From Promethearchaeia archaeon (GTDB lineage Archaea; Asgardarchaeota; Lokiarchaeia; Sigyniarchaeales; SOKP01): DNA of 30,470 nt. Below the pieces are notes generated by a model. The model was not told the DNA's origin and made no database searches. It worked only from the letters and a program-made list of their open reading frames with translations. Shown here one piece after another: positions 1 to 20,389 of this stretch (its first letter is position 1; each line of letters opens with the position of its first letter). The DNA lies in contig JAWOFX010000115.1 in NCBI GenBank assembly GCA_046497275.1, positions 1 to 30,470 on the forward strand, read 5' to 3'. A program made the translations under genes and the position numbers.

Positions 1-153
1 GATTATCATTTTTCTCTCTTCACTAATACTCGCATCAAAATCAATTTGGTAAACGTAATTAAATCCATATATAAATAGAGTGAGAATTATAAATTGAACT
101 AGAAAAATTAGAATCTTACTTCGCACAATTTTTCCATATACTTCCTTGACCAT
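1..153 (-). CDS. 5' part of a predicted membrane protein running off the left edge (MVKEVYGKIVRSKILIFLVQFIILTLFIYGFNYVYQIDFDASISEERKMII...)
   Basis: Manual translation: ATG at 153, open to position 1, one clear hydrophobic segment. Not in the supplied ORF track because it is truncated. Confidence 0.5.
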   Translation of the reverse strand, partial: MVKEVYGKIVRSKILIFLVQFIILTLFIYGFNYVYQIDFDASISEERKMII

Positions 154-440
154 TATTCTATTAAGAATTTATAATCAATTAAATTCTTCTACAATTAAAG
201 GGGAGTATAGAATTATAGAAAAGATTCTCTTCTCCTATACTCTATCTTTTCACCTTCCTATAAAAATCATTGGGTTCTAAATCAAAACTGAGATTATGCG
301 TATTCATTTCTATTAATTATTTTATTTTATTCAATAAATATAACCTTATCTAAGAAATCTTAAATAGGCAAAATTATGTATATTGTATATAGATAATAAT
401 CTCGAGATTTATAGTTAAAAATCGTTAAGGGTTAAAAAAA

Positions 441-767
441 ATGAATAATGAAGAAAATCCGAAAATGAAGGCGATAAAACGGTTTCAGGAGATGTTTCCG
501 AACCAAAGAAAAGAACTCGAAGATATGGGAATGGATTATGAAGCCTACATTAAAGAAAGAGTTAAGAGAAAATTCAAGGAACAAGAGAGGACAACCTTTT
601 TGCAGGAATTACCTCAAAACTTTTTAGAGAGTTATTTAAGTTCGGGATATGAGAAGGAATTTATTCAAGCAGCTTGGTTATATTCTTATGTTCGTTATCC
701 CGATAAAAATCATTCAACTCGTTTATTCATTTTCAATGATATCATTTACGGGAGGATGCCTTTATAA
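441..767 (+). CDS. Hypothetical protein, 108 aa
   Basis: ORF with AAGG upstream and natural amino-acid composition; no family recognised. Confidence 0.6.
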   Translation: MNNEENPKMKAIKRFQEMFPNQRKELEDMGMDYEAYIKERVKRKFKEQERTTFLQELPQNFLESYLSSGYEKEFIQAAWLYSYVRYPDKNHSTRLFIFNDIIYGRMPL

Positions 768-904
768 GATCTAATTATAAATTTGTCAGTTTCATCCATT
801 TTTAATGAAAATTTATTAAAAAAATCGATACCATGATTGTTTTCAATTTATGAAAAAATCTCAAAAATTTTTTAAAAAATTTAAAAAAAGGAGGTGTAAT
901 ACAC

Positions 905-1144
905 GTGACAGAATACTATTGTTATAATTGCGAAAAGTTTGTGAGAGTAGCTCATGACCGTAGTGCATTTTTAATGTTTGTGTTAATCGTGTTAGGATTC
1001 ATATCATTCGGAATAGGTATAATTTTAGCGATAATTTACCATGTAACAAGCCCACGAATCTGCCTTGAATGTAAACAAAAAACACTCGAAGAGCTGCCAA
1101 ATAATATGACCAAAAAGGAATTTATTGAAAAAAAGAGATATTAG
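905..1144 (+). CDS. Small membrane-associated zinc-ribbon protein, LITAF-like architecture (CxxC - hydrophobic segment - CxxC)
   Basis: CYNC, then about 24 hydrophobic residues, then CLEC. Strong SD GGAGGTG lies 8 nt before the GTG start. Confidence 0.65.
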   Translation: MTEYYCYNCEKFVRVAHDRSAFLMFVLIVLGFISFGIGIILAIIYHVTSPRICLECKQKTLEELPNNMTKKEFIEKKRY

Positions 1145-1348
1145 TAATTTAATTCTCACAGAATTTGCCTTTCTGCTAAGTCTAGAAAAACAATTTTGGA
1201 ACTATTAAGAAAATTATATTTGGAAATTAAATGCACCCGAAATTTTAACTGAAGCGTTTTTTAATTGAGTCCAAAAGGATTAGATTTAAAGTTATCCAAA
1301 AAATTTTTTAGGTATGTTTTATTTTAAATATCACAGTGGAGAAGTTGC

Positions 1349-1367
1349 AAACTGTTTTTTTATTATA
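1349..1367 (+). promoter_or_regulatory. Putative BRE/TATA promoter of the rpoA1 operon
   Basis: AAACTGTTTTTTTATTATAT about 40 nt upstream of the ATG at 1407. A similar AAAYTGTTTT motif occurs before rps12 and tef1. Confidence 0.4.
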
Positions 1368-1406
1368 TCATAATTATGAAATTAAAAATAAGGAAGTTAT
1401 CTTTTT

Positions 1407-4370
1407 ATGAGTTACAGCTATAGTCGTACGAAATTAATTGAAAAAATCAAATTTGGATTACTCAGCCCTGATGAGATTCGTAAAATGTCTGCCGCGAGAA
1501 TTATCACGGCAGATACATATGATGAAGATGGGTTGCCTATTCCGTCGGGACTAATGGATCAGCGACTAGGGACGATTGAACCCGGTCAAAGATGCCAAAC
1601 GTGTGGGAATCTCGTGAGTAACTGCATGGGCCATTTCGGGCATAGATAAAATTGGCTAAATTTTATCGCCCAAATCGAATTGGCACGTCCGGTTATCCAC
1701 GTAGGCTATGCGAAAAAGGTCCTAAAAGTTTTGAGAAGTGTTTGTCCTGAGTGTAGTCGCCTAATGCTAAGTGACGAGGCCCGAGAAAAGCACCGTGAGG
1801 AGCAAGTAACACATCGTAGGATTTATCACGAAGGTGATGAGGATATTACGAAGATTGTATTTAAGAGCGCCCGAAAAAATAAGGTATGCCCGTTCTGTGG
1901 TGCAAAAAAGAAAAAAATAATTCTTGAAAAACCTACTACGTTTTATGAAGAAGAAGAGGCAAAAGGTTCTCGGAGATTGACCCCAATCGAGATTCGGGAA
2001 CGATTGAAAAAAATGACCGATGCGGATCTTCGGATTTTAGGAATTTCTCCTAAAAATGCGAGATTAGAATGGGTGATTTTCATGGTTTTACCAATTCCCC
2101 CGGTGTGTGCTCGACCATCAATTACATTAGACAGCGGTATTCGTTCTGAAGATGATCTAACCCACAAATTAGTAGATGTGATTAGAATTAATCAAAGATT
2201 ACGGGAAAATATTGATGCAGGGGCACCTCACTTAATAGTTGAGGATTTATGGGAGCTTCTTCAATATCATATTACTACTTATTTTGATAATCAAGTGTCT
2301 GGAATCCCTCCAGCTCGTCATCGCTCCGGAAGAGCCTTACGTACCCTTACTCAACGATTAAAAGGCAAGGAAGGTCGTTTCAGAAGTAATTTAAGTGGAA
2401 AAAGAGTTGATTTCTCTGCTCGAAGTGTAATCTCACCCAACCCACATATAAGTATCAATGAAGTCGGAGTACCAGAAGAGATCGCGAAAATACTTACTAT
2501 TCCAACGAATGTGAATGATTGGAATATTGAACAAATGAAACAATTAGTCTTAAATGGACCTAATAAGCATCCTGGAGCAAATTATATTATACGAAACGAT
2601 CGACGCAGAATAGATCTTCGCTATGTGAAAAATCGAAAAATTATCGCAGATATGCTTGCACCGGGCTTCACGGTTGAGAGGCATTTAAATGATGGCGATC
2701 TTGTACTCTTTAATCGACAACCCTCACTTCACCGAATGTCAATTATGGCACATGAGGTAAAAATCATGGAGGGGAGAACCTTCCGACTAAATCTTACTGT
2801 CTGTCCTCCATATAATGCTGATTTTGATGGAGATGAGATGAATCTTCATGTCCCTCAAAGCGAAGAGGCGAGAACTGAGGCAGAACTCCTTCTTAAAGTC
2901 CAAGAGCATATCTTATCACCCAGGTTTGGAGGTCCTATTTTAGGAGGCATTCAAGATTTTATTTCAAGCGTATTTCAATTCACCAGTAAGGATTCTCTTT
3001 ATAATGAAAAAAATACGTTAAAGCTTCTTTATATGGGAAATATTTTTGATAACCATCCAGATTTTAAATTGGAGGATTTAGAACCCGTAGTGACAGATCC
3101 CGAGCCAATGTATTCAGGGAAGCAAATCTTTAGTACTCTTCTTCCAGATGATTTGAATATTCGAGTACGCTCAAAATTTTGTAAGAAGTGCTTTACAAAA
3201 CCTGGAGAGGAATGCAAGGAGGAGGATTGTGAATTTGATGCGTATGTCTCGATTACAAATGGAGAGCTGGTAACGGGAACGATTGACGAGAATTCCTTTG
3301 GTGCGATGCAATCAAATAGTATTTTACAGAGGGTTATCAAAGATCATGGAAATGCTCGAGGAAGAGAATTCCTCGATAGTGCCACCCAGATGTTATTATA
3401 TGTCATTCGTCAAAATGGAATGACGATGGGACTTGATGAGGTTTTTGTAAAAGGAGAAGCATTTGAAGAGATACAAAAAGTGTTACATGATTCTACTGAA
3501 GAATCGAAACGCCTTATTAAAGCTTTCCGAGAAAATGATACTGACGTGTTGCAAAGAGCACCTGGGAGGTCATTGAAAGAGACTCTTGAATTACGGATTC
3601 GGCAGGTACTTGCTGAAGCACGTAAAAAAGCTGAAGAAATTGCTGCGAACTATATTGGAGACGAAGCTCATTCCGTTATCATGACAAAATCAGGAGCTCG
3701 AGGAAATATACTTAATCTTGGACAAATGTCTGCTGTTGTGGGACAACAAGCAATAAGAGGTGAAAGAATCAATAGAGGATATACCTCAAGAACATTACCT
3801 CATTTTAAAGTAGATGATCTTACTCCTAAAGCACGAGGATTCGTAGAACAATCCTATAGGAATGGATTAGACCCCTCTGGATTCTTTTTCCATGCTATGG
3901 GTGGCCGAGAAGGTCTTGTAGATACCGCAGTACGTACTAGTACATCAGGATATATGCAAAGGCGTTTAGTGAATGCCTTACAGGATATGGTCATTGAAAA
4001 CGATGGAACCGTGAGAAATGCTGACAAAAATGTCATTCAATTTGATTTTGGAGATGATAATATTAATCCTCAACATACCGATCATGGAGATGCGGTGAAT
4101 TTAGATGTTCTTCTACTTAAAGCTCAAACCCTGGATACCAATGAAATTAAAGAAGAATTAAAACATGTAAAACCTGAGAAACAAGAAAAATCGAAACCAA
4201 AAGAGAAAAAAGAAGAAGTGAAAGAAAAAGGGAAGGAAAAGGGGAAAAAAGTTCCAACTGAAAATCAAATGCAAGATGAATTTGAAAAAGAAACCGGAAA
4301 AAACGCTATTTGGCAAGGAAAAATAACTAAACAATATAAAGAATGGAGAGAAGAAAACTATGGAGTATAA
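1407..4370 (+). CDS. rpoA1: DNA-directed RNA polymerase subunit A' (Rpo1N), two exons 1407-1643 + 1674-4370, 977 aa after splicing
   Basis: N-terminal [16 protein letters not shown], clamp Zn site CQTC..CMGHFGH joined to [30 protein letters not shown], catalytic [10 protein letters not shown], bridge helix [15 protein letters not shown]. The ORF track splits it into 1407..1649 and 1680..4370. Confidence 0.97.
1644..1673 (+). other. 30-nt BHB-type (tRNA-splicing-endonuclease) intron in rpoA1
   Basis: Insert AGATAAAATTGGCTAAATTTTATCGCCCAA, with in-frame TAA at 1647-1649. Central helix GGGC(1638-41)/GCCC(1668-71), 5' bulge AT^A, inner 9-bp stem, 3' bulge AA^A. Removal restores His-Ile of GHFGHIELARP. 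Confidence 0.9.
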
Positions 4371-7730: not shown

Positions 7731-7939
7731 ATATTTTATTAAATTCTCTTTATTACCTTAACTATTATTTATAATTTCACTATCTCTCATTCATAATTTA
7801 TAGCATATCACCCCTATATTATTAAATATGTTATTAGATTAATGAGGAATCAAAAGTTATAAGCTAATTTTTATATAATCAAAAAACATATTATTTTATA
7901 AGCGAGTTTTAAAATTAGGTAAGGTAGATAATAATAGGT

Positions 7940-9919
7940 ATGGGTTCCGACAAAAAGATTTCTGAAACTTTGGAAAAACAATTAAAAGCGATAGGGCAGA
8001 AAATCAGATTAGATCTGTTAAAAAATTTACATCTTTCTGATACGGCCTTATCATTCTCAGATCTTCAAAAATCAATAATGCTCTCAGAGTCTAATTCTGT
8101 TAATCTTACATTTCATCTGAATTCGCTTAAAGAGGCTAAGTTAATATGGGCGAGTAAAGAAGGGTATCATATAACAGATATTGGAAAGCAAATACTTGAG
8201 AAAGTAATAGATATCGAACACATCATAAATAAAAAAAATAAGAATTTAGTTATCAGAACTTCTAAATATTCAACTGAACCCTTCAATATAAAAAACGTTA
8301 AAGAATATTTGATGCGAGAAGCAGATATGGATCCTTTTCTTGCAGATCAAATGGCTAAACTTGTGGAAAAAAGATTATCAGAGACAAACGTTGAGTATCT
8401 AACTGCCCCTCTAATGAGAGAGTATATTAATGCTATTTTATTAGAAGAAGGTCTTGAAGAATTTCGACATAAATTAACTCGATTAGGAATCCCTCCCTAT
8501 GATGCTGAAAAGTTATTTGATATGAATTCTGTAGAACCTATGGATTATATTAAAAAGTTAGGTTCAGAAAGTTCTGAGCAATTTCTCTTGTTAAATTTAT
8601 TACCGAAAAAGCTCGCTGATCTTTATTTATCTAATAAAATCGCTTTATTAAATTTGAATACATGGTCGCTGAGGCCCTTGAGTATTTTTTTGAATTTTGA
8701 GACGATTCTTAATAACTCATCTCAACACATTCAAGACCCTTCTTTAGATTATACAAAATCACATAATAGAGCTTTAAATATTTACTATTTTCTTCAAGGA
8801 TTAGCGCCTTTTTTTTCTAATAATGTATTACTCTATAATTTTGCCTCTCTATCCTCCTACATTAAAAATAATGCGGACTTGACTATTTTTATAAATACTT
8901 TTCTTTCTCTTGTTCGATGCTTAAATAAATCTTTTCAATCGAAACATGCATTTTCTTTGACTAATTCAAAATTACAGCAAGACTCTCAACCTTCAATTTT
9001 TCATAGAATTGTTTTAGAATTAAAGGATTATTTAGATAAATCTAATCGAACTCATAATAGCTTTTTAAATTTAATGCCACAAATATTAATTGATTATACC
9101 TCTGTAGATAAGAAAGATATCGAATATTTTTTTAATTCACTATTCCTTAAATATGGCTCACCAATTTTTTTTGATGGGACACAAAGCTTAATTAATTCTG
9201 ATTTAATTAGTTCAAGCAAAGAGATTTTATCATTTCCAGGGGAAATAGTTTTAGATAAGGTTTTAATTAATCTCTATTCTATTGCTCAAGAATCAAATCG
9301 AAATGATTCAGTATTTTTTGAAATATTGAATCAACGTGTAAATTCTGTTTTTTCCTTATATGACTATAAAAAAAAATTTGTAGAAAGAAAATTAAAAAAT
9401 TCGAGTTTATGGAATAAATTTCTTGAAAATTTTTTGAATTTTAATAAGAATGAATGGACCTTGAGATCAATTAAATCAATAAGTTTCCTTGGACTTAATG
9501 AAGCTGTAAAATCTCATTGTGGAATTGAACTTGACAGAATAGAATCGAGTCAAAAATTTGCTTTCAAAATTCTAAACACGATGAAAGAGATAATCACAGA
9601 AAGGAATTCTCTCTATAATGAGAAGTTTTGTTTATCTCAACCTCACCAGGGATCTTATTTGCAAAGTATTGATGATGGATATAATGAATCTATTGACTTA
9701 GATATTAATACTGAAAACAATCTGAGTTTGCTTATACGGAAAAGTTCAAAATTAACATTAGATGAAAAAATAGCCATTTATAGAAAATTTAGTAAAGTAA
9801 TAGATGGGGGGTTTTTAGTTTCAGTGAATGATGAATATTCAGAACCTAAAAAGGCTCAACAATTATTTAAGACTATAATGGACTCAAAACTCCTTGCTTT
9901 TAATATTTGTTACAATTAA
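7940..9919 (+). CDS. Winged-HTH (ArsR-like) + ATP-cone + degenerate class III ribonucleotide reductase (NrdD)-like fusion protein
   Basis: N-terminal wHTH (RLDLLKNL..LSFSDLQ..LTFHLNSLKEAKLI..GYHITDIGKQIL), ATP cone (VIRTSK..EPFN..LTAPLMREYINAILLEEG), NrdD-like core segments (SISFLGLNEAV, FAFKILNTM, RKFSKVIDGG). No C-terminal Zn/glycyl-radical domain. Confidence 0.75.
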   Translation: MGSDKKISETLEKQLKAIGQKIRLDLLKNLHLSDTALSFSDLQKSIMLSESNSVNLTFHLNSLKEAKLIWASKEGYHITDIGKQILEKVIDIEHIINKKNKNLVIRTSKYSTEPFNIKNVKEYLMREADMDPFLADQMAKLVEKRLSETNVEYLTAPLMREYINAILLEEGLEEFRHKLTRLGIPPYDAEKLFDMNSVEPMDYIKKLGSESSEQFLLLNLLPKKLADLYLSNKIALLNLNTWSLRPLSIFLNFETILNNSSQHIQDPSLDYTKSHNRALNIYYFLQGLAPFFSNNVLLYNFASLSSYIKNNADLTIFINTFLSLVRCLNKSFQSKHAFSLTNSKLQQDSQPSIFHRIVLELKDYLDKSNRTHNSFLNLMPQILIDYTSVDKKDIEYFFNSLFLKYGSPIFFDGTQSLINSDLISSSKEILSFPGEIVLDKVLINLYSIAQESNRNDSVFFEILNQRVNSVFSLYDYKKKFVERKLKNSSLWNKFLENFLNFNKNEWTLRSIKSISFLGLNEAVKSHCGIELDRIESSQKFAFKILNTMKEIITERNSLYNEKFCLSQPHQGSYLQSIDDGYNESIDLDINTENNLSLLIRKSSKLTLDEKIAIYRKFSKVIDGGFLVSVNDEYSEPKKAQQLFKTIMDSKLLAFNICYN

Positions 9920-19055: not shown

Positions 19056-20389
19056 ATGGCCGATAAAAAACCACATTTGAATCTAGTTATAATAGGGCAT
19101 ATTGACCATGGTATGCTATAACCGTTTCGGTTAATTAGCCCATAAAGTCAACCATGATGGGTGCCCTGTTAATTAAAACAGGTGCGGTAACAGACAGAGA
19201 AGCACGAGAATTAGAAAAAATTGCGAAAGAATTTGATAGAGATTCATGGTCATATGCATACGTATTTGATAAATTGAAAGAAGAACGACAGAGAGGAATT
19301 ACAATAGATCTTGCCTTTAGAAAATTCGAAACACCCAACAAATATTTCACAATCATTGATGCCCCTGGTCATCGAGACTTTGTCAAAAATATGATCACTG
19401 GTGCAAGTCAAGCTGATGCAGCAATCTTAGTAGTTTCCGGAAAGAAAGGAGAAATGGAAGTTGGTATCGCAGCTAATGGTCAAACCCGTGAGCACGCCTA
19501 TTTAGCACAGACCTTAGGCGTTAAACAATTGGTTGTGGCCATTAATAAGGCAGATGTCTGGGATTATGATGAAGATAGATATAAAGAATGTGTACAATCA
19601 GTATCAGCTCTTTTAACAAATATTGGTTTTCCTGTAAAAAAGATTCCGTTTGTACCTGTAAGTGGATTACTTGGGGAGAACCTTACTGAAAAAACCGATA
19701 AAATGCCTTGGTACGATGGTCCTAGTTTAATAGACGCAATTGATGAATTTCAATTACCAGAAAAACCGACTGGTAAACCCTTACGAGTACCTATTCAAGA
19801 TGCATATAGAATTAAAGGTACTGGTGTGGTTCCAGTGGGTAGGGTTGAAACTGGTGTATTAAAAAAAGGTGACCAAATTCTTATTCAACCAACCGGCTTT
19901 AAAGGTGAAATTCGAAGTATAGAGATGCATCATGAAGAAATTCCCGAAGCAGAACCGGGAGATAATATAGGATTTAGTATCCGAGGTCTTACATTAGAAG
20001 ATGTACACAGAGGAGATGTTTTAGGACGACCTGATAATCCACCAACCGTTATTACACCTAAGGGGAGTTTTACTGGACAAGTCATTGTAATTTGGCATCC
20101 TACTGCAGTTGCACAAGGTTATACTCCAGTTGTTCATGCTCATACCGCTCAAGTTGCAGCGAAATTCGTTGAGCTTAAAAAGAAACTTGACCAGAAGACG
20201 GGCGCTGTAATCGAAGATAACCCGAAGTTTATCAAGAAAAACGAAGCTGCTATTGTCACGTTAAGTCCTATCAAGAAATTGTGCATAGAGAAATATGAAG
20301 AGATTCCAGAGATGGGTCGATTCGCGGTACGCGACATGGGTAGAACCGTAGCTGTTGGTATAGTAAAAGATCTTGAAACTGGAGAGTAA
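19056..20389 (+). CDS. tuf: Translation elongation factor EF-1 alpha, two exons 19056-19113 + 19146-20389, 433 aa after splicing
   Basis: MADKKPHLNLVIIGHIDHG|KSTMMG P-loop, ERQRGITID, DAPGHRDFVKNMITGASQAD, NKAD, GRFAVRDMGRTVAVG. The ORF track misses exon 1 and starts at 19154. Confidence 0.97.
19114..19145 (+). other. 32-nt BHB-type intron in EF-1alpha
   Basis: Insert TGCTATAACCGTTTCGGTTAATTAGCCCATAA, with TAA at 19119-21 and a frameshift. Central helix ATGG(19108-11)/CCAT(19140-43), bulges TA^T and AA^A, inner hairpin, outer exon-exon helix. Removal gives GGT AAG TCA ACC (GKST). Confidence 0.92.

Follow-up and report, generated by a model that had tools for sequence, protein, structure and literature searches.

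A predicted bulge-helix-bulge intron interrupts the RNA polymerase subunit A' gene of an Asgard archaeon and recurs in its relatives

Introduction

The archaeal pre-tRNA motif called bulge-helix-bulge (BHB) runs, along its 5' strand, through an outer helix, a 4-bp central helix, a 3-nt bulge and an inner helix, and, along its 3' strand, through the inner helix, the central helix, a second 3-nt bulge and the outer helix. This layout and the rule by which it is cut reportedly stem from work by Marck and Grosjean in 2003, and a BHB intron in a protein-coding transcript, the crenarchaeal cbf5 pre-mRNA, is said to have been described by Watanabe in 2002 and Yoshinari in 2006. HAC1/XBP1 mRNA undergoes unconventional cytoplasmic splicing, which is carried out by Ire1 together with a tRNA ligase (RtcB in metazoa). 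Here, we analyze a stretch of 30,470 nt from a Lokiarchaeia-type Asgard archaeon, a member of the Promethearchaeia (hereafter the window), in which rpoA1, the gene of RNA polymerase (RNAP) subunit A' (Rpo1N), is interrupted by 30 nt that have the features of a BHB intron and that we compare with these systems.

EndA, the tRNA-splicing endonuclease of archaea, cleaves each bulge of a BHB motif behind its second nucleotide (PMC5829648; bioRxiv 10.64898/2026.10.13.758758). Splicing of the BHB intron in the pre-mRNA of crenarchaeal cbf5, a pseudouridine synthase gene, was shown experimentally (Yokobori 2009, PMC2738675), and according to the same source no archaeal protein gene besides cbf5 has confirmed splicing. 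BHB motifs of the relaxed class are cut, as known so far, only by EndA types of broad specificity (PMC5829648); the (alpha-beta)2 type cleaves the relaxed motifs of cbf5 pre-mRNA (PMC2738675), and the Asgard enzyme is of this type, with an L1 loop (PMC5829648). [quoted passage not shown]

Results

A 30-nt insert splits rpoA1 within a conserved motif

The source genome (G000; G, C and L numbers are our handles for genomes, contigs and loci) is a metagenome-assembled genome (MAG) of 3.85 Mb with 30% G+C, comprising 188 contigs and 98.9% complete, and the window consists of the first 30,470 bases of its contig C83. There, on the plus strand, rpoA1 appears as two open reading frames (ORFs), one of 80 aa (1407-1649), which begins with the ATG at 1407 and ends at a TAA (1647-1649), and a TTG-initiated one of 896 aa (1680-4370). 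The Pfam profile RNA_pol_Rpb1_1 is divided between the two, its positions 2-73 matching the upstream piece and 74-312 the piece that starts at 1674, and since the profile runs on in this way across 1644-1673, these 30 nt constitute a clean insertion. Exon 1 extends from 1407 to 1643 (79 codons, ending in CMGHFGH; Rpb1_1 E-value 2.5e-20), the insert with its in-frame TAA from 1644 to 1673, and exon 2 from 1674 to 4370 (898 codons plus stop, starting with IELARPVIH and continuing after Rpb1_1 with Rpb1 domains 2-5). In silico removal of 1644-1673 yields a single open frame of 977 codons. rpoA1 is present in a single copy in the source genome, and across its family the exon 1 protein is 94-100% identical, as against a DNA identity of 66-78% (first ~690 nt of the gene). 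A preliminary description of the window had placed a 30-nt, TAA-containing interruption in the motif CxGHFGH-IELARP, and all of its coordinates hold, with the profile broken between positions 73 and 74.

The insert and its flanks fold into a relaxed BHB motif

The minimum free energy fold of 1620-1694 matches a BHB-like structure exactly (-26.2 kcal/mol, z = -3.67); of 200 dinucleotide shuffles, not one was as stable. In this fold, an outer exon-exon helix, h, is formed by the 5' strand AUG.GCCA.UUC (1626-1637) and the 3' strand GAA.UGGC.CGU (1677-1688), and its core (1630-1637/1677-1684) spans eight positions with one U-U mismatch. The central helix, H, pairs exonic GGGC (1638-1641; the Gly codon plus the C of the His codon) with intronic GCCC (1668-1671). 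It is bordered on one strand by the 5' bulge AUA (1642-1644), which leads into the inner helix, h' (1645-1667; 9 bp, 1645-1653/1659-1667, with a 5-nt loop at 1654-1658), and on the other strand by the 3' bulge AAAUC (1672-1676). The insert thus has the 4-bp central helix flanked by bulges on opposite strands that the BHB class requires. With 5 nt where the pre-tRNA topology has 3, the 3' bulge places the motif among the relaxed BHBs, and no other feature departs from that topology.

From the BHB rule, cuts are predicted at 1643^1644 and 1673^1674 (^ marks a predicted cut), while the alternative pair of 1644^1645 and 1674^1675 yields an identical mRNA, the junction being ambiguous by 1 nt. The helices, the loop and the bulges, including the relaxed 3' bulge of 5 nt, all lie where the preliminary description had put them, and the cuts that it had derived, with a His-Ile junction, are the ones that open the 977-codon frame in silico.

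On this basis we propose the following course of events. The transcript would fold such that the exonic GGGC of the Gly-His codons pairs with the intronic GCCC, the resulting 4-bp helix having the AU^A bulge and the intron hairpin of 9 bp on one strand and the AA^AUC bulge and the exon-exon helix on the other. A heterotetrameric (alpha-beta)2 EndA would then cut at 1643^1644 and 1673^1674, and RtcB would ligate the exons, creating CAU-AUC (His-Ile) and an A' subunit of 977 residues. The predicted spliced junction reads ...GGGCAU joined to AUCGAAUUGGC.

Inserts recur in relatives at two sites 5 nt apart

In the GTDB family concerned (f1), 135 genomes were searched for the N-terminal exon, with a match in 127 of them, and every short open frame was inspected. 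Fifteen of these 127 genomes carry inserts at the rpoA1 spot, so that related or analogous inserts exist in 14 genomes besides the source genome; they amount to 17 in all, with lengths of 30, 31, 35, 40, 50 and 85 nt, and 61 distinct alleles of the family are intronless. The inserts occupy two positions, site A, after the His codon, and site B, 5 nt downstream, after the GA of the Glu codon. Site A alone is filled in 10 genomes (30 nt in G000, G019, G010, G050, G057, G108, G100 and G065, 31 nt in G149, 40 nt in G020) and site B alone in three (50 nt in G018, 85 nt in G091 and G110). Both are occupied in G063 (L056) and G097 (L058), where inserts of 30 and 35 nt, located on the minus strand about 20-110 nt past the CxGHFG codons, enclose a 5-nt micro-exon, AUAGA.

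The two sites have motifs of their own. At site A, exonic GGNC and intronic GNCY make up the central helix, and nine of the 10 aligned carriers have AA^A-U-N as their 3' bulge, G010 having AU^A-U-A; at site B, the central helix is UAUA/UAUA and the bulge AA^R. Cutting after the second bulge nucleotide restores H-I-E-L-A-R-P in 17 of 17 inserts, including those of 31, 35, 40, 50 and 85 nt, and no process besides structure-guided excision readily accounts for such exact restoration of the frame. As inserts of these five lengths would shift the frame, read-through is excluded. In the twin alleles, moreover, one strand of the site-B central helix (the 5' one, U^AUA) lies across the site-A junction, and upon folding the B motif forms only once A has been removed, which suggests that splicing would be ordered, with A going first.

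Some inserts were also seen elsewhere in exon 1. G010 has an additional one of ~31 nt, which changes the frame (L019, minus strand, ~125 nt past the ATG), near codon 42-45 (between YDEDG and LPIPS), and near the same codons G074 (C4:219886-220152) and G073 (C314:189-455) have in-frame inserts with a TGA.

The stems covary, and exon codons track the intron

Covariation was scored on the structure of the window, using a gap-free alignment of the 10 site-A carriers and 500 shuffles. Standard pairs filled 87.8% of cells, compared to 75.6 ± 1.6% in shuffles, and the covariation score was 0.421, compared to 0.194; none of the 500 shuffles reached the observed values. Changes on both sides were found at 11 pairs, with all nine inner-stem pairs showing compensatory changes, and when the 3' partners were slid by 1-3 columns, pairing went down to 31-46%. 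The central helix was paired in 100% of cells in the 10 carriers, and its third pair is G-U, A-U, G-C or U-G, the Gly wobble base and a base of the intron thus changing in concert. The alignment of rpoA1 from related genomes, which the preliminary description had proposed as a check for presence, absence and stem covariation, thus bore out its expectation.

In carriers, the Ala-Arg codons GCC-CGN pair with AUGGG (Met-Gly), lengthening the outer helix. Arg is encoded by CGN in 15 of 15 carriers but in 21 of 61 intronless alleles, and Ala by GCC in 14 of 15 as opposed to nine of 61. When phylogenetically independent pairs were counted, 7.7 linked GCC with the intron and 0.1 went against (median p 0.008), and 5.4 linked CGN with the intron and none went against (p about 0.06). 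Behind this codon bias lies either selection acting on the motif's exon half or joint conversion (co-conversion) of the intron and its flanks, and either one implies a real genetic element.

The intron turns over rapidly within the family

To account for the presence and absence of the intron, 13 changes or more are needed on a maximum-likelihood tree of the exon (77 distinct alleles). The sister of a carrier is usually an intronless allele, at branch lengths of 0.05-0.2. Carriers are found in six of the 13 genera, and the five other matching genomes of the source genus are intronless. Recognisable sequence is common to the site-A introns of three genera, and a 3' hairpin to the site-B introns; we read them as probably homologous introns subject to many precise losses or to allelic exchange, on a tree that cannot separate gain from loss. 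The hairpin of the source intron occurs once in its genome, and intron sequence of the g11 type was found in rpoA1 only, in the two carrier genomes where it matched. As no second copy turned up in the carrier genomes checked, the intron cannot be called a dispersed repeat; it can be dispensed with, turns over fast and is no fixed regulatory device. Five families with weak matches, when checked directly, proved to be merely divergent and uninterrupted.

The genome encodes the enzymes that the model calls for

The source genome encodes two EndA paralogues. The alpha subunit, a 201-aa ORF (C46:30059-30664), finds its best PDB match in the alpha subunit of Aeropyrum pernix (3P1Z_B, E-value 3e-38), with which it aligns through the crenarchaeal specificity loop, including the Lys (SKPR vs EKPR), and it has kept the active-site Tyr, His and Lys. 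The second paralogue, a 200-aa ORF (C168:8025-8627), does not have the catalytic His, as would be expected of a structural beta subunit. Two full-length RtcB paralogues are encoded as well, at C100:5154-6461 (minus strand) and C145:7959-9266, with scores of 571 and 553 bits, respectively. ARAGORN identified no more than 19 tRNA genes, some of these calls being dubious, and nine contain introns; interruptions probably keep most tRNA genes of the genome from being recognized, and the result fits the heavily interrupted tRNA genes reported in other Asgard lineages (PMC11291895).

Similar inserts are found in other conserved genes

Within the same window, the EF-1alpha gene has its P-loop split, between GHIDHG and KSTMMG, by a BHB-shaped insert of 32 nt (19114-19145, in the region 19108-19146). 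Its central helix is AUGG/CCAU, its bulges are UA^U and AA^A, and a hairpin is nested within its inner stem; the downstream piece of the gene begins at position 17 of the GTP_EFTU profile. Two further BHB-shaped inserts lie on other contigs of the genome. One, of 30 nt, interrupts a gene of the UbiA-family prenyltransferases (C111:36426-36455, minus strand, L148), whose Pfam profile is divided into 3-48 and 53-231, and the other, of 31 nt, lies in a cysteine-rich motif of cdhA (C46:5373-5403, L147), which would read ...YMPICD^MCCLCTFGKC... when spliced; the Pfam match of cdhA (Prismane family) falls on the downstream exon only.

The genome was also screened de novo for structures with a 4-bp helix, an inner helix of at least 4 bp and an outer helix of at least 3 bp, enclosing 16-110 nt whose removal fuses open frames, in variants that applied 3'-bulge filters or had a codon-usage filter switched on or off. 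It returned 13 strict hits, including rpoA1, cdhA and the UbiA-family gene, and missed EF-1alpha, which marks it as insensitive. The screen is swamped by chance BHB-like shapes at gene boundaries and its structure criteria are too strict, and we draw no genome-wide count from it. Considering the four genes, we lean somewhat towards the view that the family keeps a population of BHB mini-introns in conserved motifs of essential protein genes (rpoA1, EF-1alpha, cdhA and the UbiA-family gene), which would turn over fast, be stackable and constrain synonymous sites.

Surroundings of rpoA1

No rpoH-rpoB was found upstream of rpoA1, where the contig begins 1.4 kb away (window 1-1406) without a long ORF, and the same-genus relative G002 likewise has no rpoB upstream of rpoA1. 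Elsewhere in the window (7731-9919), the gene for S7 is followed by an NrdD-like/DUF7347 gene and not by EF-2. Frames that include the rpoA1 N-terminus are 1340-1496 codons long, versus ~980 here, in G002 (C31:9945) and G148 (C29:15646) of the family f1, as well as in G208, G179, G169, G223 and others in the phylum, suggesting that in some Asgard genomes A' and A'' are fused or have no stop between them.

Discussion

Taken together, these data make it very probable that the 30 nt within rpoA1 are a BHB intron spliced by EndA. The preliminary description had interpreted them in this way; all that it predicts at the level of sequence holds, and it gains from the homologous and independent inserts of 14 other genomes, from the covariation, from the frames restored at 30 to 85 nt and from the enzymes encoded, for a motif that is relaxed and not a strict 3-4-3 one. 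From the same evidence we infer that cleavage and ligation take place and that translation of A' depends on both.

Several observations weigh against this conclusion. The rpoA1 motif departs from the strict 3-4-3 hBHBh' geometry by a 3' bulge of 5 nt, in the source genome and in the other site-A carriers, and that an Asgard EndA would cut such a substrate is a presumption drawn by analogy from crenarchaeal enzymes. One pattern scan of a metagenome for the species junction, spliced or unspliced, gave 0 matches. In the genome-wide screen, the frame-restoring candidates never outnumbered controls in which the cuts were shifted by 1-2 nt, a null result that lends no statistical support to many such introns across the genome. 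Finally, no insert at the rpoA1 site was seen outside one family: none in order-level relatives, none in 46 named loci of other archaea, including Lokiarchaeum ossiferum, and none among the non-family rows listed for a 301-genome sample of the phylum (139 rows stand outside that list).

Other explanations of the insert fare poorly. Archaeal RNAP genes are split in places, namely into A'/A'' and B'/B'', and since both ORFs exist here, A' might be made as an 80-aa piece and an 896-aa piece started at the TTG at 1680, the two assembling in the polymerase. This was the alternative raised by the preliminary description, and it is weakened by the finding that the equivalent Leu codon is TTA, CTA, CTT, CTC or CTG in 10 of the 15 carrier alleles, with no conserved start or Shine-Dalgarno motif ahead of it. 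The break would, moreover, fall inside the invariant GHFGH-IELARP motif, 61 close alleles are uninterrupted, and a split would explain neither why the helices co-vary nor why six insert lengths agree exactly with the BHB cut rule, all of which renders a split gene very improbable. We attach equally little credence to a pseudogene, or to a small palindromic element whose insertion was neutral or deleterious, with no A' being expressed. The in-frame stop codon and the patchy distribution in relatives would suit such a scenario, yet rpoA1 is the sole copy in a nearly complete genome (98.9%), both exons are open, with 898 codons downstream, and the protein is conserved at 94-100% while the DNA has diverged to 66-78% identity. 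Nor does the insert form a repeat family, there being no second copy of the related intron in two carrier genomes or of the intron's own hairpin in the source genome. As for an artefact of assembly or binning, which a MAG fragmented into 188 contigs could invite, inserts of differing sequence at the same spot in 15 separately assembled genomes reduce its probability to next to nothing.

The insert might instead be passed over during translation. In the bypass of T4 gene 60, a hairpin with a stop codon lies near the take-off point and matched take-off and landing codons flank the gap, and the hairpin and stop in rpoA1 do recall that case. Here, however, the codons are unmatched (CAU before the gap, AUC, AUA or AUU after it), in relatives the stop codon stands apart from the take-off codon, and a bypass would have to cope with lengths of 30 to 85 nt and, in some genomes, with twin inserts around a 5-nt micro-exon; read-through by recoding, in turn, is impossible for inserts of 31, 35, 40, 50 and 85 nt. 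Such translational routes are extremely unlikely. The RNA might also be relieved of the insert by a route other than EndA and RtcB, through another nuclease-ligase pair or self-cleavage. Nothing specific speaks for this beyond the fact that the link between enzyme and substrate is a deduction, whereas the 4-bp helix, the opposed bulges and the cut positions are the defining features of an EndA substrate, and we regard it as very unlikely. A group I or II intron would need to be much larger than 30 nt; these and inteins are ruled out by the size of the insert, by the stop codon and by the lack of any Rfam match in 1500-1800.

In the literature searched, cbf5 is the only gene with experimental proof of archaeal tRNA-type mRNA splicing, and rpoA1 is predicted to be the next, with strong comparative support. 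If this is true, the tRNA-splicing machinery would be essential for both transcription and translation in this lineage, and if the population of mini-introns is true as well, mRNA splicing by EndA and RtcB would be both general and essential in the prokaryotes most closely related to eukaryotes. Gene callers will present core genes of these genomes as truncated or split. The locus would offer a natural system for the gain, loss and tolerance of protein-spliced introns in coding sequence near the prokaryote-eukaryote boundary, and with alleles that have or lack the intron, one family supplies ready material for direct tests.

Among known systems, the rpoA1 intron shares with that of cbf5 a short length within the coding frame, an often relaxed BHB motif, hosts that have a hetero-oligomeric (alpha-beta)2 EndA with a specificity loop, and a patchy gain and loss among related species. 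It differs in that it concerns the essential A' subunit of RNA polymerase, in an Asgard/Promethearchaeota lineage, and in its two alternative sites 5 nt apart, both of which are filled in two relatives and then leave a 5-nt micro-exon; furthermore, splicing of cbf5 was proven by experiment, whereas that of rpoA1 is predicted from sequence. HAC1/XBP1 is alike in that a protein enzyme splices an mRNA at paired stem-loops and joining by a tRNA ligase alters the frame or the product, but its endonuclease is Ire1, its motif is another and it is a regulatory system, which the rpoA1 intron, as far as seen, is not. Archaeal tRNA introns resemble the rpoA1 intron in the predicted recognition motif, the enzymes, the size of tens of nt and the rapid turnover; in contrast to them, the exon part of the rpoA1 motif is provided not by the tRNA fold but by coding codons (Gly-His and Ile-Glu-Leu-Ala-Arg), so that maintenance of the intron constrains synonymous sites.

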